From a bacterium (GTDB lineage Bacteria > Patescibacteriota > CPR2 > UBA1875 > JAJYID01), in assembly GCA_021796415.1 (NCBI GenBank), contig JAJYJC010000002.1:7983-71982 (forward strand): 64,000 nucleotides of DNA. The letters are read 5' to 3'. Made by a program: the position numbers and the translations under genes. This document shows positions 1 through 39,570 of the stretch, in pieces. The notes under the pieces were generated by a model, which was not told where the DNA came from, ran no database searches, and worked only from the letters and a program-made list of their open reading frames with translations. Positions within the stretch are counted from its first letter, which is position 1, and each line of letters starts with the position of its first letter.

Positions 1-637
1 CCGTCATTTGTCTTTTGCACTCCGGAACCAAAGGATCAACCCAATTTTCCAAATCCTTGTCGTAGTAATCGATCTTCCAGAAGACTTTCTCATCTTCCCA
101 CTTCAAACTCCCGGAGTCATGCTCTCCGAATGGATCATTGTCTTCATTGAAGTCATTGAACATCTTGATCCTGCCCAACAACCCTTCCAGGTTTCGAAGA
201 GTCCGAGCTCCTTGAGACAAGACAGTCCCTAAGCCCGACTCACGGAAACAATCATTTTTTGCCGCTATGCTCGCAGCCTGAAGATCCAATGTGTCTAACA
301 TCTGTTCCTCCTTTCCATTTAATTTAACTCTCCGGCGGTCGACCTCCGCCTTTGAAAGAGGAAAAAGAACAGCATGCCGGACAAGTCAAGGTGGAGCCCC
401 TTTATGGAACGACCTTGACTTGTTTGGTCTGTTCTTACACTTAAAAGAAAGGAGGAGGTCGTTGCACCCCGCCTCAACCCAGTTCGATTTAGTTATTTAG
501 ACGATAAAAGGAGACAGTATAAAAAAGTCTCTATGCCTCAAAAAAAGACAAAGAAAAGAGACGCCATTTCTGACGTCTCGTACCATAGAATGAAGCAATG
601 CTTCAAACCGTAGGTATTGGGTGCAAGGAACCGAGGA

Positions 638-9613: not shown

Positions 9614-9614
9614 T

Positions 9615-10984: not shown

Positions 10985-10991
10985 ATGAAAG

Positions 10992-11261: not shown

Positions 11262-11268
11262 ATGAAAG

Positions 11269-11514
11269 ATGGTAACAAGGGGTGAATCTTTTAAGGCTCG
11301 TTATGGCATGAAGTTCAGCACTGTATATTGGTTAATAGTCGTTTTTTGTCAGACGCTCGTTCTGGTAATCGCGGTAGCCTTGATGTCATTTGATGTCAGT
11401 CGGGTGAACTTGACTGCATTGACGGGTATCATTCTGGTGCTGGTTGTGCTATCGGTTTGCTTTGCTATCGGCGCGCTTTATGCCGCCAAGGATGAGCGAA
11501 AACCAATCGAATAA
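11269..11514 (+). CDS. small membrane protein paralog 4 (81 aa)
   Basis: Start context gggaggtaaatgaaagatgg. Two TM helices. Confidence 0.55.
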   Translation: MVTRGESFKARYGMKFSTVYWLIVVFCQTLVLVIAVALMSFDVSRVNLTALTGIILVLVVLSVCFAIGALYAAKDERKPIE

Positions 11515-11525
11515 GAAAGGGGTGA

Positions 11526-11714
11526 ATGACGATGGGACCAGTCAAGGTTCTTACAGGAGACCGTTTGCTTTTTCTTGCGGCTGCCTTTGCGGCATTTGCC
11601 GTATTTGCAGTTGTTGCCGATAAGGTCTACAGTTCTCTTATGTGGGGGATCTTTTCAGTGATAGGTCTGATCGGTGAGGCTTTTTGCGTACTTGTGCTTT
11701 ACAGGCGAAGATAG
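11526..11714 (+). CDS. small membrane protein paralog 5 (62 aa)
   Basis: Start context aaggggtgaatgacgatgg. Two TM helices. Confidence 0.5.
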   Translation: MTMGPVKVLTGDRLLFLAAAFAAFAVFAVVADKVYSSLMWGIFSVIGLIGEAFCVLVLYRRR

Positions 11715-15396: not shown

Positions 15397-16923
15397 GTGA
15401 GACTAATGGGTAGAAGGGGTAGGCAAAGGATATGGACTGAGGAAGTTGTCATCAACACGCTTAAATCTCTGAAAAAGAATGGCGAACCGGTTAACACGCA
15501 GTACCTGATTAACAACCACCGATCATTGCGTTCGGCTATGGTGAAGAGATTCGGTTCCTGGGAAAAAGCTGTTGTTGCAGCCGGGCTAGATCCCAAAAAG
15601 GAACGAGCTAAAAACCAACCTACTAAGAGCAATAATGCCCGGAAAGAAGCAGTGGTCAAGACTACGCCTCAGTCTAAACGGAAATCTTCCAGGAAATGGC
15701 GTGGTACTTACAAGCAATGGAGTAAGGATAAGATCATTGCCCAGTTGCATGAAATCAAGCTCAACGGAGAAGCCATCAGTTATAATTCATTGAGACAAAA
15801 TGGCTACAGTGGCCTTGCGGCTGCAGCTTGCCGTTACTTCGGTTCATGGGAAAAAGCAATCATAGCGTCTGGTTTTGATCCCGACCAAGAAAGCTTGGTT
15901 AAGAGATCTGGAAAGCCTTCTGAAAGTTGGGATAAAGACAAGGTCATTTCTAGATTCAAAGAGATCAAAGCCAAAGGCGGCAGTATCAACTATAAGGCCA
16001 TACAAGAAAATCATTATGGTCTTTGGAGTGCGGCTTGTTACTACTTTGGTTCCTGGGAAAAGGCGGTCACTGTTGCTGGCTTTAACCCCGATGAGGAGAA
16101 GCTGTTTCAGAAATTTGCGCTGAAGAGGAAGATAGGAAGACATCCCTTGGCCCCTTCAGAGGAATATGAGCGATCCTTAGTAAAGCAAGGCAAGCTCAAT
16201 GTTCTCTTTCCAGCCATGAGACAGCTTAGAGAACAATTAGGACGAGCTGCGACAGACGTCGAAATTGCACATTTCCTCAAAAAGTCGGTGGAGGAGATTG
16301 CTAATTGGCAATCAAGCAGAGAGAGGCTAATCCTCTCTTACCTGCCACTAGCAGAGAGCTATGCAAGGCATTTTTATGAGCATCAAGTCAAGGTAAGGCA
16401 TCTGACTTCTGACAATAAGTACAACAGAGAAGAATTCAGGGCTTTTGGCAGTCTATGGCTAGTTGAAGTTATGGAGGAATTCGATTGGGGCGACGAATTC
16501 GGTGGTTTTTCTGGCTATTTCAAGGTAGCATTTGAAAGGAGGATATATTACCGATATCTGATCAAGGAGATCGAAAATCCTATCATATCATTTGACTATG
16601 AAATAGAGTCTGGGCGAGATGGTAGCAGAATGATCCTCGCGGATATAATTGCTGACCCTCGGTCTCTACCAGAACCAGAATACGACCCAAAACAGTTATC
16701 CTTCATAAAAAGCGCCCTTAATCAACTGCCGGGAAGTCTCAAGCATGCACTTATGTGGGATCTTGGCATGGAATTTCATGACAAGACGCCCGCGGAGTTT
16801 GCAACTTTTCTGGGGGTTGCCATTGGAGACATAGACGAGCTCATCAAAACTGCTATTAGGAAGTTCTCAAGTATAGTTTTTCAACCCGGACTTCCTGACG
16901 GCGATCAGGCTTTAGCCTCATGA
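15397..16923 (+). CDS. sigma-70-like protein with three N-terminal ~55-aa repeats
   Basis: C-terminal HTH LKHALMWDLGMEFHDKTPAEFATFLGVAIGDIDELIKTAIRKF (region 4-like). Central segment LILSYLPLAESYARHF...FSGYFKVAFERRIYYRYL (region 2-like). The N-terminal repeats share W..EKVI...KEIK..G..I.Y..L..N...L..A...YFGSWEKA...AGF[DN]P. Confidence 0.5.
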   Translation: MRLMGRRGRQRIWTEEVVINTLKSLKKNGEPVNTQYLINNHRSLRSAMVKRFGSWEKAVVAAGLDPKKERAKNQPTKSNNARKEAVVKTTPQSKRKSSRKWRGTYKQWSKDKIIAQLHEIKLNGEAISYNSLRQNGYSGLAAAACRYFGSWEKAIIASGFDPDQESLVKRSGKPSESWDKDKVISRFKEIKAKGGSINYKAIQENHYGLWSAACYYFGSWEKAVTVAGFNPDEEKLFQKFALKRKIGRHPLAPSEEYERSLVKQGKLNVLFPAMRQLREQLGRAATDVEIAHFLKKSVEEIANWQSSRERLILSYLPLAESYARHFYEHQVKVRHLTSDNKYNREEFRAFGSLWLVEVMEEFDWGDEFGGFSGYFKVAFERRIYYRYLIKEIENPIISFDYEIESGRDGSRMILADIIADPRSLPEPEYDPKQLSFIKSALNQLPGSLKHALMWDLGMEFHDKTPAEFATFLGVAIGDIDELIKTAIRKFSSIVFQPGLPDGDQALAS

Positions 16924-17017: not shown

Positions 17018-17050
17018 GGGCTGACACTCAGCGACTCATTGGCCCCCAAC
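17018..17050 (+). terminator. intrinsic terminator-like hairpin
   Basis: 11-bp perfect stem ggcccccaacc...ggttgggggcc, then atttaaatt. Confidence 0.4.
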
Positions 17051-17224
17051 CTTAAAAAGGTTGGGGGCCATTTAAATTCCGTAAACCATTGGGGTTCAGA
17101 ACGGTACCATATGAAACAAGACAAAAAAACAAGACAAAAAAAGTTCTTGACTTGATAAACCTCTTATGTTAAAGTCTTGCCATTAAAATCAAATAGGAGG
17201 GGCAGGAGGGAAGAAAGGATCCCT

Positions 17225-17551
17225 ATGCGACGTTTTCATTCTCTCCTGACAGTTCTATCATTAACGCTTCTATCGGCTACACCGGCCTTTGCGGCCCCTG
17301 CCGATCTCTCTAAGGTACAAAGTTTTGCCCAGAGCATTATACAAGTGCTCGTAACACTGGCCGGCCTGCTTGCAGCCGGTTTTTTTGTTATGGGCGGTAT
17401 CGGCTACATCACAAGCTCAGGTAACCCAGAACATCTCGACAAGTCTAAAAGAACTATTATCTTTTCAGCTCTAGGACTGGCGGTTTCGATCGGCGCCTTT
17501 GTTATCTCAAATATAATAGCCGAACTCGCGACAACGGCATTCGGCAGATAG
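17225..17551 (+). CDS. T4SS pilin-like protein (signal peptide plus two TM helices; VirB2/TrbC-like topology)
   Basis: Signal peptide ending AFAAP. Motif GFFVMGGIGYITSSGNPEHLDKSKRTI is repeated in the N-terminus of the next gene. RBS aggaggg. Confidence 0.5.
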   Translation: MRRFHSLLTVLSLTLLSATPAFAAPADLSKVQSFAQSIIQVLVTLAGLLAAGFFVMGGIGYITSSGNPEHLDKSKRTIIFSALGLAVSIGAFVISNIIAELATTAFGR

Positions 17552-17560
17552 GAAAAAACG

Positions 17561-18835
17561 ATGAAGAAATTAATCCCTGCCATATTTACCGCGGCGATTA
17601 CTTCACTCATTCCAACCATAACTTTTGCCGCTTCCAACGCTGATGTTGAGGGTTTTGCCCGCGACACTTTGACAACTCTTACTGTCTTAGCATCCATTGC
17701 CGTTGTCTTTTTCCTGATCGGCGGAGGGTATCTATATATAACCTCCACGGGGAAACCAGAGGCGCTTGATAAGGCCAAAAGAACTATCAGAAAAGCTCTG
17801 ATCGGGCTCGTAATCGTTATCGGTGCCAGTGTCATTTCCTCGATCCTAAACGGAGCGCTCACTCCGTCAAGTTCCGGCGGTATCGGGACGGCTCTAAACT
17901 TAGCTCCCATTCAGCCGGCTGCCCAAAACGGATCGCTGGCCCAAATACTTCTTGACGCTATTTCCGGTTTCCTGCAAAACATTGTTCAGTCGGCGACAAA
18001 GCCGATTATAGACGGCATTACCTGGTTTCTTACAAACACTCCGGCCTTATCAACCAACTCAGTTGTTTTTAAGTTTTGGCTCTTAATGGTCGGCATTACC
18101 GATTCACTTTTCGCCGTTGTTATCGCGCTCCTCGGCCTCCATGTCATGAGCGCCTCGACCTTCGGCTTTGAAGAGCTCAGCGTCAAACAGCTCATGCCGA
18201 GAATCGGTCTTGCTTTCCTTGTCGCCAACACCTCAATATTTTTGATTGACTGGATCATCCTCCTTTGCCAAACCTTAATCCATGCAGTTCTTAACGCCAC
18301 CGGAGGTCTGGGCCAAGCTTGGATCCTAAACGCCTTTGACCCGGCCGCCCTTGTCAGCGGTTCAACGGCTCTCATTACTCTGATATTTATGATTATCTTT
18401 GTGGTCCTAGCCATAGTTCTGCTTCTTTTCTATATCAGCCGTTTAATGATCCTTGCCTTCGGCGCCGTTATCTCACCGCTGGTCTGCCTGCTCTGGCTTC
18501 TGCCTAAGGCGTCCAACTTCGCCGAAAACGCAGTCAGAATGTATTTTGTGACGCTCTTTTCCATTTTTATCCATGTCGTTATCATTCAACTGGCCTCGGC
18601 TTTTCTTACCATACCCGGCCAGCAGGGGACAAATCCGATCATCTCCGTTCTAATCGGTATCGCTCTTCTTTCTATACTACTTAAAAGCACGGCAACCACG
18701 ACTCAACTCGCCCTATCCGCACAGACAGCGGGAACGTTCAAGAAATACGGCGGCCAGCTACTAAATGTAATGAGCTCGTCTGCCAGCGGGACATCATCGT
18801 CCAGAGCGGCGGCTCAGAAAGCGAGTACAAAATGA
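17561..18835 (+). CDS. VirB6/TrbL-like polytopic membrane protein with an N-terminal pilin-like domain
   Basis: N-terminal ~100 aa paralogous to the 17225 gene (VFFLIGGGYLYITSTGKPEALDKAKRTI). At least six further TM helices follow. Confidence 0.5.
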   Translation: MKKLIPAIFTAAITSLIPTITFAASNADVEGFARDTLTTLTVLASIAVVFFLIGGGYLYITSTGKPEALDKAKRTIRKALIGLVIVIGASVISSILNGALTPSSSGGIGTALNLAPIQPAAQNGSLAQILLDAISGFLQNIVQSATKPIIDGITWFLTNTPALSTNSVVFKFWLLMVGITDSLFAVVIALLGLHVMSASTFGFEELSVKQLMPRIGLAFLVANTSIFLIDWIILLCQTLIHAVLNATGGLGQAWILNAFDPAALVSGSTALITLIFMIIFVVLAIVLLLFYISRLMILAFGAVISPLVCLLWLLPKASNFAENAVRMYFVTLFSIFIHVVIIQLASAFLTIPGQQGTNPIISVLIGIALLSILLKSTATTTQLALSAQTAGTFKKYGGQLLNVMSSSASGTSSSRAAAQKASTK

Positions 18836-19341
18836 AAACAAGCGTAGTGCCAGCTCAAATCACAACGATCGAGGACAAAATTGCCGGCAATATGACCTTC
18901 CCTCAGATCCTGCTCCTCGTCATTTCCCTGGTTCTCGGCACCATAATCTATGTTATCGTTCCCCCAAGCTCCCGCTTGAGCGTTATAAAAATCATTGCTA
19001 TCGTCGTTCAGTTTCTCATCCTCGGCCTCCTGGCTCTCCGCGTCAAAGGGCAGACTATGGCCGACCGGCTCATGATACTGCTTCGGTACGCCCTAAGACC
19101 CCGCCTTTATCTTTTTACCAAGAACGATCTCGCAACAAGAGACGTCGCCGTCCTCGAGAAAGCAAAAAAGACGGCAAAGGTAAATAATGATTTGACCAAG
19201 AAAAAGCAGGCAGTCCCGGAAAAACCCAAACTCGACCAGTCCATGCTGGACCGGTTCTTAACAGATCCGTCATTAAATATTCGTTTAGAGCTTACCAAGA
19301 AAGGAGGAATTGATGTTTCCCTTAAAACAGATAAAAGCTAA
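18832..19341 (+). CDS. VirB3/PrgI-like small membrane protein
   Basis: Single hydrophobic hairpin near the N-terminus. Position immediately upstream of VirB4. Confidence 0.4.
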   Translation: MKTSVVPAQITTIEDKIAGNMTFPQILLLVISLVLGTIIYVIVPPSSRLSVIKIIAIVVQFLILGLLALRVKGQTMADRLMILLRYALRPRLYLFTKNDLATRDVAVLEKAKKTAKVNNDLTKKKQAVPEKPKLDQSMLDRFLTDPSLNIRLELTKKGGIDVSLKTDKS

Positions 19342-19930
19342 AGGTTCGGCGAGATCCCAAATCGGCATCAGGGAAGTCAGGGATGATATTCTCATCTTGC
19401 CCGGCAACCGCTACCGCGCGGTTCTTGCCGCCTCTTCGGTCAACTTTGAGCTCCAAAGCGAAGCCGAACAAGACGCCCTCATCGACAACTTTCAGGCATT
19501 TCTAAACTCTCTGACCACTCCGATCCAAATTCTGATCCGCGTAAGAGCCCTGGATATCGAGCAGTATTTGGAGAATCTGACTTCGGAAAGGGCCAAGGAG
19601 GAGCAAAAGATTTATAGAGACCAGCTAAAACATTATTCAAACTTTATCCGCAAGCTCGTTTCGGGCAATAAGATACTCTCGCGCCGCTTCTACATTGTCA
19701 TCCCTTATGAGAACAAGGCGGCAAGCGACTTCAACATTGCCAAAGAACAGCTCACGCTGGAACAGGAAATTATCATTAAAGGACTGGAAAAACTGGGAAT
19801 GAAAGTAAGCCCGCTTAAAAGCCTGGAAATCCTTGACCTCTTCTACAGTTTCTATAACCCGGCGCTTGCCAAATCCCAACCGCTGTCTGAAGTAATAATA
19901 GGAAAAACAAATGAACTTAACATCATTTAA
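19310..19930 (+). CDS. VirB4-family ATPase, N-terminal domain (split ORF)
   Basis: Resembles the N-terminal region of Gram-positive VirB4/TraE-type ATPases (REVRDDILILPGNRYRAVLAASSVNFELQSEAEQ). Overlaps the next ORF by 20 nt in another frame. Confidence 0.5.
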   Translation: MMFPLKQIKAKGSARSQIGIREVRDDILILPGNRYRAVLAASSVNFELQSEAEQDALIDNFQAFLNSLTTPIQILIRVRALDIEQYLENLTSERAKEEQKIYRDQLKHYSNFIRKLVSGNKILSRRFYIVIPYENKAASDFNIAKEQLTLEQEIIIKGLEKLGMKVSPLKSLEILDLFYSFYNPALAKSQPLSEVIIGKTNELNII

Positions 19931-21695
19931 GCCAAAAAGGCTTCATCGCCCGAGCAGTAAAGAACGCGCGCGCCAGGAACAGGCTTTTGCCTTCCATGTC
20001 GGAGAACAGGATCAGCTCGACCTCATCACTTACGCAGGGCTGGAAGAGAGCGCAAACCACATTGAAATAGACGGCCAGTTTATGAAGACAATCTTTGTTT
20101 CCGGTTATCCCTACACTTCTTCAAGCGGATGGCTGAACCACCTTATTAACTTCAACCATAACGTCGATATCTCATATCACATTGAGCCGGTTGACGCCAC
20201 TATGGCTCTGCCTAAACTAAACCGCAAAATCACCGAGCTTACATCTACCAAAAGAGCGATGGAGCGAGACGGACGGATTATCGGGGCCGAGCTGCTCGAC
20301 CCTCTGGAATCGGCCATGGAGCTAAGAGACAGGATTCAAAGAGGACAGGAAAATCTCTTTCAAGTCTCTTTGTATATAACACTTTTTGCCGATTCTCTCG
20401 TAGAACTCGATAAGGTAACAAAGCTCTTGGAGACTGTTCTCGCCGCAAGGCTTTTCTATACTAAGCACGCGTCTTACAGGCAAATAGAGGGCCTCCAGTC
20501 GGTGCTGCCAAGGGGCGACAACCAGTTGGCCCAAAAAAGAAACTTAGACAGCTCGTCGGCCGCCATGACATTTCCCTTTATATCATCCGAGTATGTCCAT
20601 GATTCGGGGGTTCTATACGGCATAAACAGATCGAATAATTCTCTCGTGATTGTCGACCGCTTTAAACTCCCGAACGCGAACAGCATCCTTTTTGCCCAGT
20701 CAGGAGCCGGTAAGAGCTACACTGCCAAAGTAGAGATCTTAAGGCACCTGATGCAAGGGACAAAAGTAATTGTGATAGATCCCGAACGGGAATACCGCCA
20801 GCTGGCCGACTCGGTCAAGGGAACGTATATAAAGCTCTCTGTCCATTCAAAAGAAAAGATTAATCCCTTTGATCTCTCGGTTAATACATATAATGAAGCC
20901 GACGGCTTTGCAGACCACGTCCAGTCGCTGACCGAGATAATTTCTCTGATGGCCGAGGGGCTTTCAGCGGAAGAAAAGTCAGTCGTAGACCAGGCAATCA
21001 TCAAAACTTACAGGGAAGCCGGCTTTTCACGGAGAAAAACTAAAAAGAAGAACGACAAACCTTATCCAAAACTGCGTGACTTTGCCCGAATGCTTACAAC
21101 TCTAAAGCAAGACGGACTAAGGAGAAGGCTGGAAAAATATACCGACGGGTCACTATCTGAGGTGTTTAACTCCCAGACAAATATAGAGCTCGAGAATAGG
21201 CTGGTAGTCTTTGACACCAAAGACCTGCCGGAATCTCTCCGCCAGATCATGCACTTAATTATCGCCCAGTTCGTCCAAAATCAGGTCAAAAACAAAACCT
21301 GCAAGAGAACCCTTGTCATTGATGAGGCCTGGCTGATGCTTGAACATGAAGAGAGCGCCAGATTTATTGCCGGACTTGTCAGGCGGGCGAGAAAGTATTA
21401 TCTCGGAGTCAGTATTATTTCTCAGCAGGCCAATGACTTTCTCTCAAATAACTACGGACGGGCCATTGCTTCGCAAAGCGCCCTTAGAATCCTAATGAGG
21501 CAAGACACGACTACTATTAAAAATGTCGGTATCGAGTTTGGACTGAGCGAATATGAGCAGAAGTTTCTTTTGACCTGCGAGCGCGGCGAGGCTCTCATTA
21601 TCGCCGATCAGCACCATGTGGCGGTTAAGGTTACGGCTTCGGAAGAAGAGCATCCTTTAATTACTACCGATCCGGCCGAACTAAGAAAGGCTTGA
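19911..21695 (+). CDS. VirB4-family conjugative/T4SS ATPase, ATPase domain
   Basis: Walker A FAQSGAGKSYT. Walker B RTLVIDEAWLML. ISQQAND motif. Confidence 0.75.
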   Translation: MNLTSFKPKRLHRPSSKERARQEQAFAFHVGEQDQLDLITYAGLEESANHIEIDGQFMKTIFVSGYPYTSSSGWLNHLINFNHNVDISYHIEPVDATMALPKLNRKITELTSTKRAMERDGRIIGAELLDPLESAMELRDRIQRGQENLFQVSLYITLFADSLVELDKVTKLLETVLAARLFYTKHASYRQIEGLQSVLPRGDNQLAQKRNLDSSSAAMTFPFISSEYVHDSGVLYGINRSNNSLVIVDRFKLPNANSILFAQSGAGKSYTAKVEILRHLMQGTKVIVIDPEREYRQLADSVKGTYIKLSVHSKEKINPFDLSVNTYNEADGFADHVQSLTEIISLMAEGLSAEEKSVVDQAIIKTYREAGFSRRKTKKKNDKPYPKLRDFARMLTTLKQDGLRRRLEKYTDGSLSEVFNSQTNIELENRLVVFDTKDLPESLRQIMHLIIAQFVQNQVKNKTCKRTLVIDEAWLMLEHEESARFIAGLVRRARKYYLGVSIISQQANDFLSNNYGRAIASQSALRILMRQDTTTIKNVGIEFGLSEYEQKFLLTCERGEALIIADQHHVAVKVTASEEEHPLITTDPAELRKA

Positions 21696-21699
21696 AAAA

Positions 21700-22323
21700 A
21701 TGAACCCGGCCGCTATTAAGATAATCGCAAGCGCCTACTCAATGAAAAAGGAAATTAGGCTCGCGTTCATAACTCTCGTGGCTGTTTGCTTGATTCCGGT
21801 GGTTGCCGTTTTAATGATTACCCAAGTCGGGATTGACGCGGTTTCCGGAGCTCTTGCCAGCCAGAACCCTCAGACTCTTCAAGTTGATATTCACGATCCG
21901 AAGACCGGAGCGGTCATTGATCATATTGCAGGGCCGGCTATCTGGCCGGTTTCGGGCCCAGTGAGTCTGGAGTTTGGCCAGCCTTCTCCGTTTCAGCGGT
22001 TTCATACGGGAATTGATATAGCCGACCCGAACCACAGCGTCGGCACGCCGGTTGAAGCTTTTATGAAAGGCAAGGTTATTTATGCCGACAGCGATCCTTG
22101 GGGTTTCGGCCGTCATGTCATTATTGATCACGGCCACTTTGTCACCTCGCTATACGGCCACTTGAATACTATAAACGTTATTAAGGGGCAAGAAGTTGAC
22201 ATGGGAACAGTCATCGGTACCAGGGGCAATACCGGCTGGTCAACCGGTCCGCATCTCCATTTTCAGATCGAAGTTATGCATATCCCCGTGAACCCAAGGA
22301 TATTTTTGAGTGGGAATCCATAA
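21700..22323 (+). CDS. M23-family metallopeptidase (LytM-like) with an N-terminal TM anchor
   Basis: HTGIDIA...GHFVTSLYGHL...GPHLHFQIEV (HxxxD and HxH motifs of M23). Confidence 0.75.
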   Translation: MNPAAIKIIASAYSMKKEIRLAFITLVAVCLIPVVAVLMITQVGIDAVSGALASQNPQTLQVDIHDPKTGAVIDHIAGPAIWPVSGPVSLEFGQPSPFQRFHTGIDIADPNHSVGTPVEAFMKGKVIYADSDPWGFGRHVIIDHGHFVTSLYGHLNTINVIKGQEVDMGTVIGTRGNTGWSTGPHLHFQIEVMHIPVNPRIFLSGNP

Positions 22324-22384: not shown

Positions 22385-24496
22385 TTGAATCAAATGGAAA
22401 CAAGAGAAAGTCAACAATTTAACAATCAAACAGCTTTTCCAGAAAATCAGCACACTTACAACGATCTGAATTCTGGTGATATTGAAAACCAAGAAATTCA
22501 TTTTTCTGAGGAGCAAAAGACGGCAATCGAACAAAAAAGAAGAGTTCTTTCTTCTCTTGCCTACTTTATTGGTAAGGATTTTCAGATCCCTGTAGAGCTG
22601 AATGAACCGGGTATGGGTTGGCACTGGGATTTTAAGAAAAATGAAATCAAAGTCGATCCTAAAGATCTTATTGAAAAACCCATGGACTACTTAAGATTCG
22701 TTATTTCTCACGAGGGAGGACATCGCCGTATCTCTCGGACAGAATCGATTCCTCTCGAGACTTGGAAGCAGCCCGGTTTTTCTTTCATGATGAATGCGAT
22801 TGAAGATCCCAGAGATAACAACTTTGTGGCTGAAAACTACCCAAGATTTAGAAGTCAAATGGATGTGGCGTATAAAGACAGTATGGAACTTAAGCAAGAA
22901 TCTGCGCAGAAAGCAAGTGATGAGCTCGGTTATCAGCCTCGTTTTATGCAAGCTGGCTTTGAGTATATTAAGCAGTGGCACAAAGAACAAAAAGGTGAAA
23001 AATTTTCTGTAAGCGAAGATTTACCAAAAGAAGTTCGAGAGGTTGTTGAAAAGACTTTGAATGCGGCAAGCGACTCATGGTGGCGCTATCCGTCAAGAGA
23101 AGAAGCTGACTCAAGTGAAGAGACAATCAAAAAATATGCTGAGGCCTCTTATCGAATAAACCTAGAAAGAATTTGGCCTGAGTTTCAAAAACTTGTTGAG
23201 AAGGATATGGAAGATCAAAATATGCAAGAACTCCTAGGCCAGATGCAAACAAGTGAGGAAGAGGGTGGCTCGGGGTTACCTCAAGAACTCGAAGATAATC
23301 TATCGCCAGAAGAACAAAAGGTATTAGAAGAAGCAATCGAACAAGCCATGCAGAGTGGTGCTGAGGTACAGGAACAAACAGAAGCTGGCACACGAGGCAA
23401 ACCAATTGATTTAAGCTCTTTACCCGACGAGTTGAAACAAAAAATCCAAGATTATATTAATTCTTTGCCGGAAGATCAAAAGCGAGAACTTGCAGAAAAA
23501 GCAAGGGCGGCATTGTCTGATTTTGAAAAAGAACTAGATGAGGAATTGGGAGGGAAACTCTCAGATAGCCCGGAGAAAAAAGCCGAACGAGGCGAAGAAT
23601 CTGAGATACCGTTAGAAAGTAAGGCAACTACGACCGAACCAATTACCCCGGAAGAGTCCGATGAAGTGAGAAAATACAGAGAATTTATAGAACAAGAGCT
23701 ATCAAAAGACGCTAATGCCTATGAAAGACATCGCCGAGAGGTTTTACCCATTATTGACCAGCTTGAACAAGATTTAAGAGAAATTTTTGTTATGAGAAGA
23801 TCTGGCCAATGGGAAAGCGGATTTAGGTCAGGAAAAAGAATTGATATCAAAAGAAGAATACAAGAAAAAGCCAAGGGCGTATCTGCAATGGAGAGTAAGG
23901 CGTGGGAAAAGAGAGAATTGCCCCAAGAAAAGGATTATGCTGTCAGTCTGCTTGCTGATTTATCAGGATCAATGCGAGGAGAAAAGATAAAGGAAACTTT
24001 TAAGGCAGTCATTGTGTTATCTGAAGTGCTAAACAGATTATCAATCCAAACAGAGATTCTGGGCTTTAACAACAGGATTTATGATTATCAAAACTTTGGT
24101 GAGGACATATCAAACCAAAAACGAGAAAACATGGGCGGTATGCTTCAAGAAGTTGCGGGTAGCGGACACAGGTGGAACGATGACGGTTGGGCTGTTGAGC
24201 AGGCATCGGAGCGACTGGCAAAACAAAGAGCGAAAGAAAAGTTTCTTATTGTCCTTTCAGATGGCTTGCCGGAGGAATCTTCTGCCCATCCAAGAGCAAA
24301 GTATGAGCTTGGATCTGTGGTGCAAAAAATTATTGGCTCAACGGATCAAAAGTTAATTGGATTGGGCATCGGTCCAGATACAAATCATGTTGAAAATTAC
24401 TACCCAAATAGTATTTCCAATGTAAATGTAAAGGAAATGGCTGGAAAGCTGGCCGACCTCATCCGTGAAGCTATTGCTAATTTTGATAAATTTTAA
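22385..24496 (+). CDS. VWA-domain protein with an N-terminal HExxH metallopeptidase-like motif
   Basis: ISHEGGHRRI (HExxH). Acidic coiled-coil linker. C-terminal VWA domain with MIDAS DLSGSM and LIVLSDGLPEE. The architecture resembles DUF2201-type partners of MoxR-like ATPases. Confidence 0.65.
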   Translation: MNQMETRESQQFNNQTAFPENQHTYNDLNSGDIENQEIHFSEEQKTAIEQKRRVLSSLAYFIGKDFQIPVELNEPGMGWHWDFKKNEIKVDPKDLIEKPMDYLRFVISHEGGHRRISRTESIPLETWKQPGFSFMMNAIEDPRDNNFVAENYPRFRSQMDVAYKDSMELKQESAQKASDELGYQPRFMQAGFEYIKQWHKEQKGEKFSVSEDLPKEVREVVEKTLNAASDSWWRYPSREEADSSEETIKKYAEASYRINLERIWPEFQKLVEKDMEDQNMQELLGQMQTSEEEGGSGLPQELEDNLSPEEQKVLEEAIEQAMQSGAEVQEQTEAGTRGKPIDLSSLPDELKQKIQDYINSLPEDQKRELAEKARAALSDFEKELDEELGGKLSDSPEKKAERGEESEIPLESKATTTEPITPEESDEVRKYREFIEQELSKDANAYERHRREVLPIIDQLEQDLREIFVMRRSGQWESGFRSGKRIDIKRRIQEKAKGVSAMESKAWEKRELPQEKDYAVSLLADLSGSMRGEKIKETFKAVIVLSEVLNRLSIQTEILGFNNRIYDYQNFGEDISNQKRENMGGMLQEVAGSGHRWNDDGWAVEQASERLAKQRAKEKFLIVLSDGLPEESSAHPRAKYELGSVVQKIIGSTDQKLIGLGIGPDTNHVENYYPNSISNVNVKEMAGKLADLIREAIANFDKF

Positions 24497-24508
24497 TAAA
24501 ATTACGTT

Positions 24509-24934
24509 ATGATAAAGGAAAAATTTTCAACCTTTTTAGAATATTCTTTGTCTCAAAAAGAAGTTTCTCTAATCGTGGCCAAACATGAAAATGAGCTTTC
24601 TCATTTTGAGAGGTGGCTTGAAGACAAGGGGTTTAGAAGAGCTGCTCATGCTTTTGACTTGCTTGACAACCTTGAAGATCATAAGAAACTTTACGTGATT
24701 TTAAAAACAGAGAATGGCAAAGATTCCTATGATTTTGCGGCTCAGTTTCCAACGGGTCAGATTGAGCTTTTTGATAAAAAAACCATGAAAAAGATGCTAA
24801 AAAATATTGATTATAAAAACCGATCAATAGTCTTTTTAACCACAAAGCATCATCTCTTCGACCTTGAAAAGGAGGATTTTAATTTTCTCTCATCAGTTGG
24901 TATGGCTTTCAGAAATGGAGATGCCCATGTCTAG
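24509..24934 (+). CDS. hypothetical protein (141 aa)
   Basis: ORF between the VWA and ATPase genes. Confidence 0.4.
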   Translation: MIKEKFSTFLEYSLSQKEVSLIVAKHENELSHFERWLEDKGFRRAAHAFDLLDNLEDHKKLYVILKTENGKDSYDFAAQFPTGQIELFDKKTMKKMLKNIDYKNRSIVFLTTKHHLFDLEKEDFNFLSSVGMAFRNGDAHV

Positions 24935-27002
24935 TCCGGAATTTAGTTTACTTACCGATCCTGAGCAGGAAAAGCCTGTAGAGGATAAGCATCAGGAAGA
25001 AAAAAGCGAGACTCTCGCTCCGATTGCGGAGGATGAAACCTCGGTTTCATATCTAGGGGTAAGATTAGAAAAAGGGCATGTGCCAAGCCCCTTTATACCA
25101 GAGAGAGATAAATATACTGACTATATAAATGATCGATTTACCCTGGAGCTACAGCAGAAGATTGCCATCGGCTTTCAGTCGGGCGACCCTACTCTTATCG
25201 AAGGCGGGACTAGTATCGGTAAGACTACAGCAGCCAGAAAGATGTGTGCGGAACTTGGCTGGGAAGTTCATTATGCTAACTTGAATAAGGCCACGGATGT
25301 TGAAGATTTAATGGGCCGATATATTCCAAATCCTCATCGAACCAAACCTGATGATCCCGAGTTCGTTTTTGCCGATGGAAGAGTTACGGCCGGCCTAAGA
25401 CAGGAAGAAGGAAAAATAAAAGTTATCATCCTTGATGAATATAATGCGGCAGCGCCAAACATTGTAATCCGCCTGCATGAGGTACTAGATGCCCTTGAGC
25501 GTGATGGAGATGTTGTGCTATCGGAAGATGCCTCAGAAACCGTTCCTGTATCGAAAGATAAGACGAAATTAATTGCCCTCACTAATCCGCCCGGAAAAGG
25601 TTACTTTGGTCGTGAACCGCTAGATCCGGCTCAGTTAAGAAGATGGGTCTACCAGAAAGAAGCGAGCAATTTACCCGAAAATACTTTCTCTTTTTCAACC
25701 AAAAGTCTCTTTGGCTTGGTCTCGGAAAATGGCGATGTTATTCCCGAAGAAGTTTACCTAGAATCTCATGAAGACACTCTTTCTTCTCAGCAAATTGCTG
25801 AAATTCCCGGTATTAGCGAAGTGGAGGCAAAGTATGAAGAGTTTCATAGGGCAGCGAAAGAGCTTTTGAAAAATAGAACCATTGCTGCCGATCAACCGCA
25901 ACAGTTTACTTTTGATGATAGAATGGAGCCAAGACGGGTACGAGACTTTGTAATGAGGTTTTACAGCGGAGATATCAATGAAACTTTTCAGCAAGCTCTA
26001 AGATATTATTATTCGAATAAACTAGAGTCAGACGAAGACAGGCAGAAGATTGAAGAGCTAATCTCTCATGTAGGATACACTCCTCAGCCCGACTCAAGAA
26101 GGTTGGGTCTTGAGGATGAATCACGCCCAGAGGGAGTTGGCCTAAGAGATCAAGTCGAGATCGGCATAGAAGATATTTTGCAGGACCCGGCCATTCCGGA
26201 TTCAGTCAAAGAGGTTCTAAGAGTTGAGGGGGTAAAGTTTTCTGAGGCAAAGGAAATAATGAACCAAGATTTTATCGGTCCAGACGAGATTAAAAAAGCT
26301 TTTGGTTTAGAGGTGGATAGAGTACCAGATATTCCCTTTTCAAGAAGCGAACTGGAAAGAGCTAAGGAACTCGATCAAATGCTTATATATAGAACGGGTA
26401 CTGCTGCCCGAGGCGAGCCGATGACTATGGAAAAGATAAATGGCCTTCTTTCCGGCAAGACTAAAGATGGCGGAAAGATATTTTTTGATACTGATTGGTA
26501 TAAAGATGAGGCATTTTTTAAGTCTGAAGCAATCAAGGAAGGATGGTCTCTTGTGTCTAAGGAAGTTATATCTGAGTCGACCAGCAAGAACTATCTGGAG
26601 CAAACCGAGACAATGGTAGATTATCTTAGGAGTAAAGTTTTTGCAGGAGGCGATGTGCCAGAGGAATATCAGGAAGCAATTGGCCAATTTGAAAGCCAAA
26701 AAGATGAAATTTCAAAATTGATAGAAAGTAACTGGAAGAAAGCGGCTGAAAAACTAGAGGGTCTTTCCATTACTCACATGACCAGACAAAGACCGGTTGA
26801 AGCTATCTATGACTTAGTTGCTGTTTATGAGAATACTGATGACCATCTACTTTCTAACAGATATACTTGGACTTCCGCGCGTGACTCTGGCGGCAAGCTG
26901 GTCCGTGTGGGCTACTTCGATGCCAGGGGCGTGCGTGTCCACGGGGGCAGTCCCGACGATCGGTATGACAATCTGGGCGTTTCTTTCTCCCGCAGTCAGT
27001 GA
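24930..27002 (+). CDS. AAA_5/MoxR-like ATPase fused to a C-terminal DGR variable (target) domain
   Basis: Walker A GGTSIGKTTAARKM. Walker B VIILDEYN. Sensor 1 LIALTNPPG. Arginine motif LDPAQLRRW. The last 113 bp before the stop is VR1. The start is uncertain (24864-24930). Confidence 0.7.
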   Translation, partial: SSPEFSLLTDPEQEKPVEDKHQEEKSETLAPIAEDETSVSYLGVRLEKGHVPSPFIPERDKYTDYINDRFTLELQQKIAIGFQSGDPTLIEGGTSIGKTTAARKMCAELGWEVHYANLNKATDVEDLMGRYIPNPHRTKPDDPEFVFADGRVTAGLRQEEGKIKVIILDEYNAAAPNIVIRLHEVLDALERDGDVVLSEDASETVPVSKDKTKLIALTNPPGKGYFGREPLDPAQLRRWVYQKEASNLPENTFSFSTKSLFGLVSENGDVIPEEVYLESHEDTLSSQQIAEIPGISEVEAKYEEFHRAAKELLKNRTIAADQPQQFTFDDRMEPRRVRDFVMRFYSGDINETFQQALRYYYSNKLESDEDRQKIEELISHVGYTPQPDSRRLGLEDESRPEGVGLRDQVEIGIEDILQDPAIPDSVKEVLRVEGVKFSEAKEIMNQDFIGPDEIKKAFGLEVDRVPDIPFSRSELERAKELDQMLIYRTGTAARGEPMTMEKINGLLSGKTKDGGKIFFDTDWYKDEAFFKSEAIKEGWSLVSKEVISESTSKNYLEQTETMVDYLRSKVFAGGDVPEEYQEAIGQFESQKDEISKLIESNWKKAAEKLEGLSITHMTRQRPVEAIYDLVAVYENTDDHLLSNRYTWTSARDSGGKLVRVGYFDARGVRVHGGSPDDRYDNLGVSFSRSQ
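26878..26990 (+). repeat. DGR variable repeat VR1 (113 bp)
   Basis: Matches the TR at 29518-29630 with 13 substitutions, all at TR adenine positions. Confidence 0.85.
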
Positions 27003-27085
27003 TACTTTGAAAATTGATTTTTGAAACTTTGATACGCCGAAGGCGTCGGACACAAAATTTTAACAGAAGGTAATAAGGATAAAAA

Positions 27086-28066: not shown

Positions 28067-28123
28067 TACTTTGAAAATTGATATTTGAAACTTTGATACG
28101 CCGAAGGCGTCGGACACAAATTT

Positions 28124-29512: not shown

Positions 29513-29517
29513 ACTTC

Positions 29518-30451: not shown

Positions 30452-31045
30452 TTATCCTAAAATAATGCTTATTATATTAAATACAGCTACGATACTTTTA
30501 ACCAATATTACCATAACTTGGCGCATAACCGCGAATAATCCGGAAAACATGCCCTTTAAAATAAACTCTAATATAGACGCTCTAGTGCCGGCCATTAGTT
30601 TTAAATTGCCGTCTAAATCCAGGTGCGATATAATCTGAGCAGTCAACGCCTCATCTTCTGTTCTTGTCATTAACTCTCTGCTTGATCTTTGGGAGAGAAT
30701 ATTCATACTTCCTGTCCAAAGAATCTTTTTGTCAATCACGGCTACTTTTTCATGTATAGAACCTTCGAGAAAAACCACTTTCGCCCCTAAATTCTCATAG
30801 ATTTGGGCAGCGGCTCTAGCTTCTTCTTGAACATATTCTTCATGTTCTCCAATAGGTCGGGTAAATATAAAAAGTTTAATGTTTTTAATCCTCAGTCTAA
30901 CAAAGGTCTTCCTGAAGAAATCAGCCCGATGCTTCGTAATAAAAGGACTATAAATAATAACCTCTTTCTCGGCTTTCAGTATATCTTTTGTAAAAGCCGG
31001 GTAAAAAGTGCGTTCGTTATAGATTGTTGTTGTTTGGTTTATCAA
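30452..31045 (-). CDS. PLD-family (HKD) nuclease-like protein with a C-terminal hydrophobic tail
   Basis: Single HKD motif HEKVAVIDKKILWTGSMN (HxKxxxxDxxxxxxGSxN), as in Nuc-type endonucleases. Confidence 0.6.
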   Translation of the reverse strand: MINQTTTIYNERTFYPAFTKDILKAEKEVIIYSPFITKHRADFFRKTFVRLRIKNIKLFIFTRPIGEHEEYVQEEARAAAQIYENLGAKVVFLEGSIHEKVAVIDKKILWTGSMNILSQRSSRELMTRTEDEALTAQIISHLDLDGNLKLMAGTRASILEFILKGMFSGLFAVMRQVMVILVKSIVAVFNIISIILG

Positions 31046-34992: not shown

Positions 34993-36417
34993 TAATAAAA
35001 TTATATATAGTTCTAGTAAAGGATTTTTTATATAAAAAAGACAATAAAAAGCTTGATTTATTTTTTTAAGTTTGCTAAACTTTATAAAGCTAATAAAAAC
35101 AGGTCATTTATGACAAACGAAACGACAACTAAATACAGAGTGGACGGAAGCGGCTGTTAGCCAAAAAATTAAGTTGCTTTAAGGAAGTCCGCTAAAGGCG
35201 GATTTTTAAATTGTTTTGGCAAATTGGCGTGAAAAGATTTCAAATCGATTCAGCCGAAACAATTCGCGCCTCGCGCGAAAGTATACAGTATCCCGTATTC
35301 AGTATTGAGGTTTTATACCGAATGCACAATACTCGATACCCAATACTGTCAAGCGAGCATTGCGAGTTAAGATCGGACTTTGACAACTGAATACAGATAC
35401 ATGCTAATCCTTAAGGATTCAAGGTCGGATGTTAAATTTTTAATTTTGCATTTTGAATTTTGAATTACAGTATGTATCTTAGGGTAAACGAAATATTACA
35501 ATTTCAAATCCAGTTGATGATTACTGGTTAAGTTCGTGTCTCACTTTCGTTCGACAACGAACAGTATGCGGTATTCTGTATTCAGTATTGAGGAATTAAT
35601 CCCAATACACAATACTCGATACGCAATACTGATTATTCGCGAGCGGTAGCGAGATACGAATAAATCATCATTAAGTCAAGAAAGAGCATATGGTGGATGC
35701 CTTGGGATTTCAGGCCGATGAAGGACGTAGTAAGCTGCGATAAGCTTCGGGGAAGTGCTAAACAACTTTTGATCCGGAGATTTCCGAATGGAGCAATCCG
35801 GCTCGGGTTATGCCGAGTCACACTTAGCTGAATACATAGGCTATTTGAGGGCACGCGGAGAACTGAAACATCTTAGTACCCGCAGGAAAAGATATCAACC
35901 GATATTCCGTCAGTAGTGGCGAGCGAAAGCGGAAAAGCCAAAACTTTTTTAATGTTAAAGCTTATGGGCGTTGTTAAAAAAGTGTTGTGAGGTAGATACA
36001 CTCCTTTTTGGAGGTTAGATTTGGGACACTGGCTTGTGCTTTGCACAAGGAAATTCAAAGTACTAAATCCGAAATCCGAAACAAAACTTCAAATTCAAAA
36101 TACTAAACTAGAAACGTGTTTAGAACATTTGAATTTAGATATTAGATATTGTTTCGTGCTTCGAGATTAGAATTTAGGATTTTCTCGCGTAAAGCGCGAG
36201 TTTAGCTCCAAAACTAATACCAGGATCCATAAATCTTGGGTAAGGTAAGAAAACGAGAGTTTTAATGGAATATTCTGGAAAGAATAACCATAGAGGGTGA
36301 TAGTCCCGTACGTAAAAAAACTTTTGTCCTTATGTATTTATTCTCTAGTACTACGGAGCCCGTGAAACTCTGTAGGAATCTGGGTGGACCACCATCCAAG
36401 GCTAAATACCTGAAATC

Positions 36418-36462
<45 letters not shown>

Positions 36463-38288
36463 TGTTAGGGGAGTGAAATAGAATCTGAAACCGTATGCTT
36501 ACAGACGGTCGGAGCCGATACTTTGTATCGGGAATGTCTAATTTCCAATTAGCAATTTCCAGTCAATGAATAAATGTCTAATTTCCAATTTTGGAATTTA
36601 AAGCATTAGGATTTGATTGGACATTAGAAATTGGTCATTGGTAATTCTGATACAGAGTGTCGGTGACGGCGTGCCTTTTGTAGAATGAGCCAACGAGTTA
36701 CCCCGCACTTTTTGTCTAAGCCGTTCCGCGGTGGAGGCGAAGGGAAACCGAGTGTTAATAGCGCGATTTTAAAAGTGCTGGGTAGACCCGAAACCGGGTG
36801 ACCTATCCATGGGCAGGCTGAAGCGGCGTTAAACCGTCGTGGAGGGCCGAACCCACTTACGTTGCAATGTGAGGGGATGACCTGTGGATAGCGGAGAAAT
36901 TCCAATCGAACCCGGAAATAGCTGGTTCTCTCCGAAATAGCTTTAGGGCTAGCGTCATAAATTCGCTTTTGGAGGTAGAGCACTGACTGGGCTAGGGGGC
37001 ATATAGCTTACCAAACCCAAATAAACTCCGAATTCCGAAAGTTTTATTATGGCAGTCAGAACGTGGGGGCTAAGCTCCACGCTCGAAAGGGAAACAGCCC
37101 AGATCGCCATCTAAGGTCCCTAAGTCTATGCTAAGTGGAAAAGGATGTGAGATCGCATAAACAACCAGGAGGTTGGCTTAGAAGCAGCCATGCCTTTAAA
37201 GAGTGCGTAACAGCTCACTGGTCTAATGCGATTTTGCGCCGAAGATATAACGGGGCTAAGCATAGCACCGAAGATGCGAGTTCGCCGTAGGCGAACACAG
37301 AGTAACTAAAGAACCAAGGAACGGAAGAACAAAAAGACAAATTCATTTGTTTTAAGTTTTTCAGTTCTTATGTTCATCTGTTATTTTGTGCTCGTCTATG
37401 GCGAGCGGTAGGAGAGCGTTCCATACTGCAGTGAAGCTGAACTGGAAAGTTTGGTGGAGTGTATGGAAGTGAGAATGTTGGCATGAGTAACCAAAATCCC
37501 TGTGAAAAACAGGGACACCGTAAACCCAAGGTTTCCTGGGCAACGATAATCGTCCCAGGGTTAGTCGGTCCTAAGCCGAGGCCGAAAGGCGTAGGCGATG
37601 GACAACAGGTTGATATTCCTGTACTGCTTATTTTGTTCCCACAAGTGACGCAGGATGGTAGCCGGAGCATTTTATGGCTATAGGTGTCTAAGTGTCTAGG
37701 TGCTTCGCTTTTGTTTCGCAAGTGAAAAGTTAAAAATGCAAAGTGAAAAGTTGTCGTATTCTTCGGATGATTTATAATCGTCGCGAAGCGACTCATAAAC
37801 TTTCAACTTTTAAATTTGAACTTTAAATTATTTGCGACGCGTAAGCGGAGCATTGAAGCACGAATGAAATCTCCGTAAAACGAGAAATTCCGGTAAGCCA
37901 AACTGACTAGAAAAGCTTGTGATTAATAGAGATAAGCAACCGTACCGAAAACCAACACAGGTGGGTGGGTAGAGAATACCAAGGTGCTCGGGAGAACCCT
38001 CGTTAAGGAACTCGGCAAAACAGCGGGCGTAACTTCGGGATAAGCCCTGCCTGGGTGTGCCGCTTTGTTCCTGAGAACGAAATGCATAAAAACAAAAAGT
38101 TGAGAAAAGAAGTGAAGACAAGAAACTCGGGAGCATAGCGGCACATCTAGGCCGCAGCGAATGAGTCCAGGCGACTGTTTATCAAAAACACAGGTCTCTG
38201 CTAAATCGTAAGATGAAGTATAGGGGCTGACGCCTGCCCAGTGCTGGAAGGTTAAGTGGATGGGTGCAAGCTCTGAAATGAAGCCCCA

Positions 38289-38344
<56 letters not shown>

Positions 38345-39143
38345 GAAAATCGGAACTGCCCGAAACGCGCGGTGACGCGCGGCAAGCAAACTGGCTAATA
38401 ACGGTGAAACCCTACTATCATTAATGTTATAATGATGTACGAGGGCAATACCGTGGCAACTGGTCGTTAAGCGACAGTATACAGTATTCTGTATCCAGTA
38501 TTGGGGGTTTTAAATCCTCAATACACAATACCCTATACTCAATACTATCGCGAGATGCGATTGGAGCCGTAACGACTGAACCGAAAGGTGAGGCTCTGCG
38601 AAAAACAGGGCAATACGCCAGCTCTCGCTAAAAGAAAGGCGACTATGGATTAGAATATTGAACTTCATAATTCTAAAAAAGATCCTAAGGTTGTTGGCGA
38701 GATGAAGATATAGTCTGATCAATACGGTAACGTATTGCGAACATATGAAGTTCCGACCCGCACGAATGGCGGAACGGTCTGGACACTGTCTCAACGAGGG
38801 ACCCGGTGAAATTGCAATAGCGGTAAAGATGCCGTTTACCCGCGACAAGACGGAAAGACCCCGTGGAGCTTTACTACAGCTTGGCATTGGATTAGGGTCT
38901 TGCATGTGTAGGATAGGTGGGAGACTTTGAAGCCGGAACGCTAGTTTCGATGGAGTCGCTGGTGAAATACCACCCTTGTAAGGTTTTGATTCTAACCCGG
39001 ACCGAAAATTGGAAACAATTTTCTTCCAAGATTTAAAAGTTGTCAGAGAAGCTGCTACAATTAATTTTCCAAAATAGCTTTAGCAACTTTTAAACTACTG
39101 GAGCAGATTGCTTTCAGTTTCCGGTTCGGAGACAGTGTCTGGT

Positions 39144-39176
<33 letters not shown>

Positions 39177-39396
39177 GGTAACGGAGGCGTTCAAAGGTGG
39201 GCTAGGTCTGGATGGAAATCAGACTGATAGTGCAAACGCATAAGCCCGCTTGACTGCAAGGCCTACAAGCCGCGCAGAGACGAAAGTCGGAGTTAGTGAT
39301 CTTTTGAGTGCACGTGGGTGCCTCATTGCTTAACGGACAAAAGCTACCCCGGGGATAACAGGCTTATAGGATCCAAGAGTCCACATCGACGATCCT

Positions 39397-39433
<37 letters not shown>

Positions 39434-39467
39434 GTGAAGCAGCTCCCAAGGGTTTGGCTGTTCGCCA

Positions 39468-39523
<56 letters not shown>

Positions 39524-39570
39524 TGTCGTGGGCGTTGAAACTTGAGGAGATCTGTCCCTAGTAAGAAATT

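Follow-up and report, generated by a model that had tools for sequence, protein, structure and literature searches.

A run of six genes on the + strand, at positions 17225-22323 of a 64,000-nt stretch of DNA (the full stretch being called the window throughout), is a genuine type IV secretion system (T4SS) operon of an ultra-small bacterium belonging to the candidate phyla radiation (CPR, or Patescibacteria). We consider that it is probably the mating-pair-formation (MPF) module of an integrative and conjugative element (ICE) in a Berkelbacteria-like CPR bacterium, with about 42 kb inserted immediately 3' of a tRNA-Ala gene, in the spacer of the rRNA operon. The window was found to be CPR/Patescibacteria chromosome, with the close homologues all coming from Berkelbacteria or 'Patescibacteria group' metagenome-assembled genomes, and its sequence matches GCA_027334665.1 contig DAHWUJ010000001.1. 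A preliminary description of the window had proposed that these genes form a minimal apparatus, for DNA uptake or contact-dependent, and not a full conjugation system; such a non-conjugative minimal apparatus was not supported, because an integrase, a relaxase and a type IV coupling protein (T4CP) lie within the same insertion, on the same contig just left of the window.

The six-gene T4SS operon and its pilin::VirB6-like fusion

The six genes overlap or lie no more than 10 nt apart and encode, in order, a pilin, a pilin::VirB6-like fusion, a PrgI/VirB3 protein, a TrsD-like protein, a VirB4 ATPase and an M23 peptidase. A fusion-protein alignment, used to scan species-representative genomes, gave 80 related CPR loci (named below as L plus a number where they have to be told apart), which carry labels such as Berkelbacteria, Woyke-, Davies-, Levy- and Woesebacteria, some of these binning labels being plainly wrong. 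The order of the six genes was invariant in 80/80 of these loci, with the complete set present in 62 and the others cut by contig ends. The 5' limit of the operon is a terminator-like hairpin with a 14-bp stem (17040..17070, +) that closes the upstream sigma/HNH-repeat gene, and a promoter-like site, TTGACT-17-TAAAGT with an extended TG (17147..17175, +), is located about 50 nt 5' of the pilin ATG. Nucleotide homology to the nearest cassette relative, L082, ran from exactly 17137 to the M23 stop at 22323, and comparison of the two loci showed purifying selection on all six genes (dN/dS 0.05-0.18, with dS 0.4-1.3). The core open reading frames (ORFs) were all intact, with no internal stops. Some genomes were found to hold two diverged copies of the whole module (L041/L043, L002/L022, L030/L033 and L047/L056), of which L041 and L043 are both on Woykebacteria contig JBBDPM010000004.1, with an identity between their copies of 90% for VirB4, 80% for the fusion and 66% for PrgI. 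All genes listed in the preliminary description were present at the positions it gave, on the + strand, and it had rightly recognised a monoderm/CPR-type T4SS in which a VirB6-like protein is fused to a paralogue of the pilin and an M23 peptidase is tied to the operon, while missing the separate TrsD-like gene.

The first gene (17225..17551, +) encodes a VirB2-like pilin of 108 aa from the ATG, with two transmembrane (TM) helices behind the signal peptide (..PAFA|AP) that had been noted earlier. The pilin-like character claimed for this protein was borne out by a match to TrbC/VirB2 (PF04956; 6.4e-9, 36.4 bits against a cutoff of 27.9), with the T4SS_pilin family (PF18895) scoring 26.5 bits, just under its cutoff of 26.6. 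The second gene (17561..18835, +) encodes the 424-aa fusion, in which a signal peptide and a pilin hairpin (approximately residues 27-99) are followed by a poorly conserved linker (approximately residues 100-125) and a polytopic, VirB6/TrbL-like C-terminal domain. The predicted topology is a signal peptide, a hairpin with a basic loop, an extracellular linker and then at least five further TM segments. Residues 15-96 of the fusion aligned with the pilin without gaps, at 43% identity over 82 residues (BLASTP E 6e-16), and the fusion passed the PF18895 cutoff at 29.2 bits, in agreement with the earlier claim that the N-terminus of the polytopic protein is a paralogue of the pilin. The motif given for the two proteins, GG.GYITS.G.PE.LDK.KRTI, was nearly right; the shared string is GG..YITS.G.PE.LDK.KRTI, the fusion reading GGYLYITS.

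Support for the VirB6 label came at family level, from homologues and from a predicted structure, and not from the protein's own Pfam scan, in which no TrbL match was found at E<=0.1. TrbL_4 (PF19597) was matched by 28 of 41 fusion homologues (63-88% identical to the fusion), and a profile of the C-terminal domain retrieved 552 clusters, the distant ones matching TrbL_4 and TrbL/VirB6 (PF04610). An AlphaFold model built from a diverse 61-sequence alignment had a pLDDT of 79.7 (an earlier model from a shallow 41-sequence alignment, with a pLDDT of 52.6, was unusable), and the best PDB matches of this model by Foldseek were chains of the R388 TrwI/VirB6 stalk (probability 0.99-1.0, with weak E-values of 0.01-0.12). 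The fusion alignment used as a profile against PDB sequences gave no match. The profile search put forward to check the VirB6 call therefore failed on the sequence itself, while the homologues and the structural matches agree with that call.

More than 1,100 database proteins matched the fusion, the best 120 of which were 400-433 aa long, 64-95% identical and nearly all with PF18895, and the free pilin gene directly upstream of the fusion was kept in every related locus. The pilin N-domain was detectable in 53 of the 150 best C-terminal-domain representatives and absent from more distant TrbL-type relatives, which argues for a fusion specific to this clade. By these sequence comparisons the pilin::VirB6 architecture is real, old, conserved and clade-specific. 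No description of a pilin::VirB6 fusion was found in the accessible T4SS literature; in PMC12102498 any protein with >50% coverage of PF18895 was taken as VirB2, and pilin::VirB6 fusions may have been scored there as pilins.

The start of the third gene (18832..19341, +) overlaps the stop of the fusion gene. Its product, a PrgI/VirB3-like protein of 169 aa with two TM helices, matched PF12666 PrgI above cutoff (33.8 bits against 27), as expected from its earlier VirB3-like call. The fourth gene (19313..19930, +) encodes a TrsD-like protein of 205 aa that is homologous to the VirB4 N-terminal domain, matching the N-terminal part of VirB4 models and NF041427 TrsD of pGO1-type systems. The fifth (19911..21695, +) encodes a 594-aa VirB4 ATPase of the CD1110/MPF-FATA type, with Walker A AQSGAGKS and Walker B LVIDE, which scored 355.2 bits against NF045971 conju_CD1110 (cutoff 325) and matched PDB 4AG5 VirB4 at 5.9e-42. 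This confirmed the VirB4 ATPase of the preliminary description, but as two genes, TrsD-like and VirB4, and not one. The two are separate ORFs in 72/72 related loci and the VirB4 ATG has an AGGA motif upstream of it, so that a frameshifted or pseudogenised VirB4 was rejected; a TrsD/VirB4 split is the rule in Patescibacteria (PMC12102498).

The last gene of the conserved cassette (21700..22323, +) encodes a membrane-anchored M23 metallopeptidase of 207 aa, with an N-terminal TM anchor, a match to PF01551 at 5.5e-28 and intact metal-binding motifs, HTGID (HxxxD) and HLH (HxH), and the M23 call made earlier thus stands. The gene was in the last operon position in 62/62 complete loci. A VirB1-type hydrolase domain (lytic transglycosylase or CHAP) was absent, the M23 endopeptidase holding this conserved last position, and the peptidase is a functional analogue of a VirB1-type hydrolase and not a homologue.

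Integrase, relaxase and coupling protein in a split rRNA operon

Base 1 of the window falls inside a DUF3768 gene, the 3' part of which, cut by the window edge, occupies 1..301 on the - strand; this gene is a conserved neighbour of T4CP and relaxase genes in related elements. The left flank was supplied by contig sequence recruited via genes near the window start, which overlaps the window over 13,543 nt at 100% identity and is given here in window-equivalent coordinates, negative to the left of base 1. Ending 71 nt before base 1 is a gene (-961..-71, +) for a 296-aa protein with PF13814. This family (Replic_Relax) corresponds to the MOBC relaxase superfamily (PMC5357655), and by this homology the protein is classed as a MOBC relaxase. 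Upstream of it is the gene for a VirD4-type T4CP of 873 aa (-3597..-976, +), with matches to DUF8128, DUF87, TrwB_AAD_bind and TraG-D_C, some of them weak or faint, a Walker A motif GQTGSGKS and hydrophobic (TM-like) segments from about residue 20. Further left are a 234-aa ORF (-4497..-3793, +), which gave no PDB sequence match, a 64-aa ORF (-4903..-4709, -) and the gene for a large serine recombinase of 508 aa (-6429..-4903, -; Resolvase and Zn_ribbon_recom matches), whose 3' end is overlapped by tRNA-Ala(tgc) (-6493..-6417, +). The relaxase, T4CP, recombinase and DUF3768 genes of this flank are intact ORFs.

The tRNA-Ala gene is preceded by tRNA-Ile(gat) (-6860..-6784, +) and the 16S rRNA (-9051..-7148, +), the three together (to -6417) being L087:17430-20061. 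The 23S rRNA (35669..39549, +) is the right-hand limit of the insertion, and the 5S rRNA starts on the same strand at 40901, the 23S-5S part of the operon running to 41017. The 16S-tRNA-Ile-tRNA-Ala group is separated from 23S-5S by about 42 kb on the same strand, and because the first lies far to the left and the second at 35.7-41 kb of the window, the rRNA operon has been split by an insertion of about 42 kb. No obvious housekeeping gene was present in the inserted DNA; clear housekeeping genes (S1, IF-2, Fmt and PriA) resume from about 54 kb, well to the right of the 5S. The rRNA genes themselves carry one or more insertions each, since the match to the 1,533-nt 16S model extends over 1,904 nt and that to the 2,925-nt 23S model over 3,881 nt (about 950 nt longer). 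A LAGLIDADG homing-endonuclease ORF is located at 39717-40184, in the gap that separates the 23S match, which ends at 39549, from the 5S (40901).

Within the window, a scan for T4CP and relaxase genes that covered every ORF of at least 150 aa, together with tblastn and HMM searches, found neither. The earlier claim that the window holds no coupling protein or relaxase is therefore literally true, but is an edge effect, since the check named alongside that claim, a search of the neighbouring contig for both, found both to the left of the window. Remnants of the T4CP, relaxase or recombinase were likewise not detected inside the window by tblastn (E<=0.01), and profile HMMs (E<=1e-5) detected only the DUF3768 fragment.

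The left-flank genes have orthologues flanking the T4SS in relatives, to which they are 52-56% (T4CP), 44-47% (relaxase), 62-67% (recombinase) and 51-58% (DUF3768) identical, and in the closest related genomes orthologues of the T4CP, relaxase and recombinase directly adjoin the six-gene module. Several genes recurred near the module across the related loci: 30 loci had a VirD4-type T4CP with Replic_Relax either next to it or fused to it, 26 a large serine recombinase, 17 DUF3768 and 26 a PLD-family protein a few kb downstream (PLDc_2 at 30452..31045, -, in the window). Relaxase orthologues were found in 26 related loci. Cargo-like neighbours included restriction-modification systems and a CopA-type ATPase. 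The T4CP homologues carry PF10412, PF02534 and PF12696, a subset having a fused PF13814 and the name 'replication-relaxation family protein', and, of the 21 closest loci whose upstream sequence reaches 4 kb or more, 19 carried a T4CP, as did five others with shorter flanks. The ICE-type relatives are compact, at roughly 13-15 kb.

In 16/16 informative loci the recombinase had a tRNA gene (tRNA-Ala, -Pro, -Arg or -Glu) or a tmRNA gene as its neighbour; the two abutted in most of these loci and were no more than about 530 nt apart in the others. Such adjacency is a classical signature of site-specific integration, and the presence of the integrase at several different tRNA/tmRNA targets suggested repeated integration events. 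In a neighbour-joining tree of VirB4, internal to the related loci, the window nested within a clade whose loci carry T4CP and recombinase. The order recombinase, T4CP, relaxase, DUF3768, T4SS seen here recurs in L020, L021, L024, L028 and L031.

A number of points weigh against assigning the operon to an ICE. The sequence comes from a metagenome-assembled contig. The genes for integration and DNA processing do not adjoin the operon but are separated from it by about 17 kb, accessory genes lying between the DUF3768 gene and that for the pilin, and more than one island may have contributed to the 42 kb. A search for an att-type direct repeat of the tRNA-Ala end gave nothing longer than 12 nt, and the right end is unmarked; serine recombinases need only a few shared bases, so the missing repeat is weak evidence. 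No ORF scanned gave a Pfam match to a VirB8-like (PrgL/TraM-type) protein, although monoderm proteins of this kind are usually recognisable only by structure (PMC12102498). In L082, the nearest cassette relative with a fusion 88% identical to that of the window, the flanks are unrelated and none of T4CP, relaxase and recombinase lies within 10 kb. The same three genes were absent from most loci of a more distant, Microgenomatia-like group, for which the available sequence reached at most 10 kb upstream and about 6.5 kb downstream. The low dN/dS of all six genes between L082 and the window suggests a cassette kept by selection even where DNA-processing genes are not nearby, so that a second, non-conjugative role is possible.

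These last loci speak for a domesticated, relaxase-independent T4SS, kept for epibiotic life through protein export, uptake of host molecules or pilus adhesion, as has been suggested for Patescibacteria at large; the island would then be its history and not its function. Among Patescibacteria, only the T4SS of Southlakia epibionticum (SEML1_0006-0019; Wang et al. 2023, PMC10633639) has been studied experimentally; it was shown genetically to be essential for growth as an epibiont, and neither a relaxase nor a T4CP can be recognised in it. Most Patescibacteria virB4 clusters are without a relaxase (PMC12102498); by analogy with S. epibionticum, the module may also, or instead, serve host interaction. 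Domestication is nonetheless unlikely for the operon in the window, as an intact relaxase, T4CP and integrase are in the same insertion on the same contig, their orthologues directly adjoin the module in the closest clade, and the integrase is found in that clade at several tRNA/tmRNA targets, indicating repeated integration. We also consider it quite improbable that the operon is the remnant of a decaying ICE, once conjugative but rearranged and now immobile: the core modules are indeed 17 kb apart where relatives are compact, at about 13-15 kb, att repeats were not found and the module order is rearranged relative to most relatives, but the very same rearranged order is present in the five loci named above, the core ORFs are free of internal stops and purifying selection on the six T4SS genes is strong. 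A DNA-uptake T4SS of the ComB or Ced type, for which import as hypothesised in the 2025 paper (PMC12102498) and weak VirB4 matches to the CedB (41 bits) and CedD (33 bits) models could be cited, is very improbable, given that these scores are far under the cutoffs of 700 and 600 bits while the CD1110 conjugative family is matched above cutoff, and that the element contains a relaxase and a coupling protein.

Accessory genes of the insertion

Between the operon and the 23S rRNA, the stretch at 22385-29630 is probably cargo of the same island and not part of the T4SS. It begins with a gene for a 703-aa vWA protein that has an HEGGH motif near its N-terminus (22385-24496), followed by a 141-aa ORF and a gene for a MoxR-like AAA_5 ATPase (24864-27002). 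The C-terminus of the latter contains a variable region (26878-26990) of a diversity-generating retroelement (DGR), and a second DGR target, a 326-aa paralogue (27086-28066), has its variable region at the C-terminus as well (27942-28054). The DGR reverse transcriptase (28124-29194, -), bAvd (29132-29512) and the template repeat (29518-29630, -) complete the set. The differences between the template and the two variable regions are all at template adenines (13/13 and 14/14), and window 24864-29630 is a textbook DGR; neither target has a signal peptide or TM segment.

The vWA, MoxR and DGR genes were considered as parts of the T4SS and rejected, since their position and orientation vary in relatives and they are of a known kind, the DGR-linked vWA-MoxR conflict systems with DGR-diversified domains (PMC7159879). 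The module of vWA gene, 141-aa ORF and MoxR gene recurs beside the same T4SS/ICE family in at least three genomes (L014, L016 and L070), at other positions and orientations. A reverse-transcriptase gene was found within 10 kb of the T4SS in L012, L015, L028, L030 and L070, and a DGR-type pair of template and variable repeats was detected in all of these except L012. The vWA/MoxR/DGR module thus looks like recurrent cargo. A ComP_DUS-like type IV minor pilin domain (3.5e-8) is encoded at 32305-32877, between the PLD and helix-turn-helix genes and the 23S.

To the left of the operon, the island contains genes for two atypical sigma-70-like proteins, one of 665 aa with regions 2-4 and a long C-terminal extension (5672-7669) and one of 508 aa with HNH_repeat units ahead of a segment like sigma region 3 (15397-16923), neither of which is conserved beside the T4SS in relatives. 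A DUF3800-V RNA motif (71.5 bits; window 9485-10262) adjoins a DUF3800 gene (9615-10262, -) in the island, and a DUF3800-IX RNA is carried by L031. Five tandem small ORFs (62-89 aa) at 10482-11714 each encode two hydrophobic helices and have no family match; they were examined as a possible pilin array, but none matched a pilin family. L082 has a similar run of small ORFs (649-2407), also upstream of its T4SS cassette. In that locus, genes for SIR2_2, DUF87 (HerA-like) and PDDEXK proteins (L082:5867-9525) are directly upstream of the pilin gene, and before them come genes for an EcoRI-type methylase and a GmrSD/HNH protein, so that the cassette stands there in a defence-island context. Proximity of the T4SS to a replication origin was also considered and rejected, as DnaA-box matches were not above chance and the window contains no dnaA or dnaN.

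Proposed mechanism and comparison with known systems

To the gene content, gene order, conservation, purifying selection and insertion position set out above, the biochemical steps of a transfer cycle can be added by homology. The recombinase would excise the element, and the relaxase would nick an origin of transfer (oriT) and remain attached to the single strand, the coupling protein then passing the relaxase-DNA complex to the channel. VirB4, anchored at the membrane by PrgI/VirB3, and its detached N-terminal domain, the TrsD-like protein, would power assembly and transfer. The pilin::VirB6 protein would form a membrane platform, on which the free VirB2-like pilin could polymerise into an extracellular filament or conduit, while the membrane-anchored M23 peptidase would open the peptidoglycan locally, in the role of VirB1-type hydrolases elsewhere. 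The VirB6 of R388 is a pentamer and conjugative pili are built as five-start helices, so it may be speculated that the fused pilin domains supply a first pilin layer that nucleates or anchors the filament. We propose standard conjugation adapted to the monoderm CPR envelope, its unusual parts being the VirB2-like pilin with a pilin::VirB6 platform and the M23 peptidase in place of a VirB1-type hydrolase.

A broader reading starts from the compact tRNA-integrating elements, which consist of an integrase, a MOBC relaxase, a T4CP, DUF3768 and the six T4SS genes. On this reading, monoderm CPR cells would bear a VirB2-type pilus nucleated by VirB6-fused pilins, the Patescibacteria T4SS would ancestrally be the mating pore of an ICE, with the relaxase-less lineages domesticated, and CPR bacteria would conjugate among themselves or into their hosts. 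We regard this as possible but doubtful. The elements are concrete candidates for asking whether CPR bacteria conjugate and whether a monoderm T4SS makes a VirB2-type pilus, and the natural fusion, by linking VirB2 and VirB6, gives a handle on their cooperation. The insertion is also an example of a mobile element unlinking an rRNA operon, and a caution for window-based scans, as the decisive genes began 71 nt past the window edge.

Neither the consistent ICE context of this clade nor the rRNA-operon insertion was found in the accessible literature, and the same holds for the fusion; none of the three is outside known kinds. Among individual systems, the R388 TrwI/VirB6-TrwJ/VirB5 stalk (PDB 7O3V, 8RTD and 8RT9) gave the best structural matches to the fusion model, both being polytopic and helical, although the match was weak (E 0.01-0.12, target-normalised TM-score 0.38-0.46). 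Unlike in R388, no VirB5 homologue was recognised here, and the VirB6 of R388 is without a pilin domain.

The mycoplasma ICEs resemble the cassette in two respects. The pilin and the fused pilin domain matched NCBIfam Mbov_0395 (2.3e-8 and 4.1e-6, below the curated cutoff), and the PrgI, TrsD-like and VirB4 proteins were collinear with residues 4-96, 110-283 and 293-892 of the 894-residue Mbov_0397 model, again below cutoff. These three are separate genes here and a single protein in mycoplasmas, and the mycoplasma ICEs are, according to a review, without a VirB1-like component.

With the Firmicutes MPF-FATA systems (C. difficile CTn2/CD1110 and the TrsC-TrsD-TrsE of staphylococcal pGO1/pSK41), the cassette shares a VirB4 that passes the CD1110 cutoff, a TrsD-like gene before VirB4 as in pGO1, a PrgI-type VirB3 and a lack of outer-membrane components. 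The Firmicutes systems are not known to have VirB2-type pilins and use lytic-transglycosylase/CHAP hydrolases, not M23 (see PMC12857230). The cassette differs from them in its VirB2-type pilin, its M23 peptidase and the absence of a VirB8-like protein recognisable in Pfam scans.

T4SSs of the Patescibacteria clade (Quinonero-Coronel et al. 2025, PMC12102498; S. epibionticum) are like that of the window in having one or more VirB2-like pilins, VirB6, PrgI/VirB3, a separate TrsD-like protein and VirB4, with a peptidase directly downstream of virB4, a monoderm host and a chromosomal location. In place of the published pilin array there is here one free pilin and one pilin domain fused to VirB6. 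The Patescibacteria systems have been described as largely relaxase-less and probably repurposed (PMC12102498, PMC12857230). In the window's element, by contrast, a relaxase of the MOBC type, a T4CP and a serine recombinase beside a tRNA gene share one insertion, and it is the absence of such genes that the published account stresses. Unlike the current published picture, a sizeable clade of Patescibacteria T4SSs lies in compact elements in which the T4SS is joined by the other parts of a full ICE complement, namely a serine integrase next to a tRNA or tmRNA gene, a MOBC relaxase and a coupling protein of the VirD4 type.

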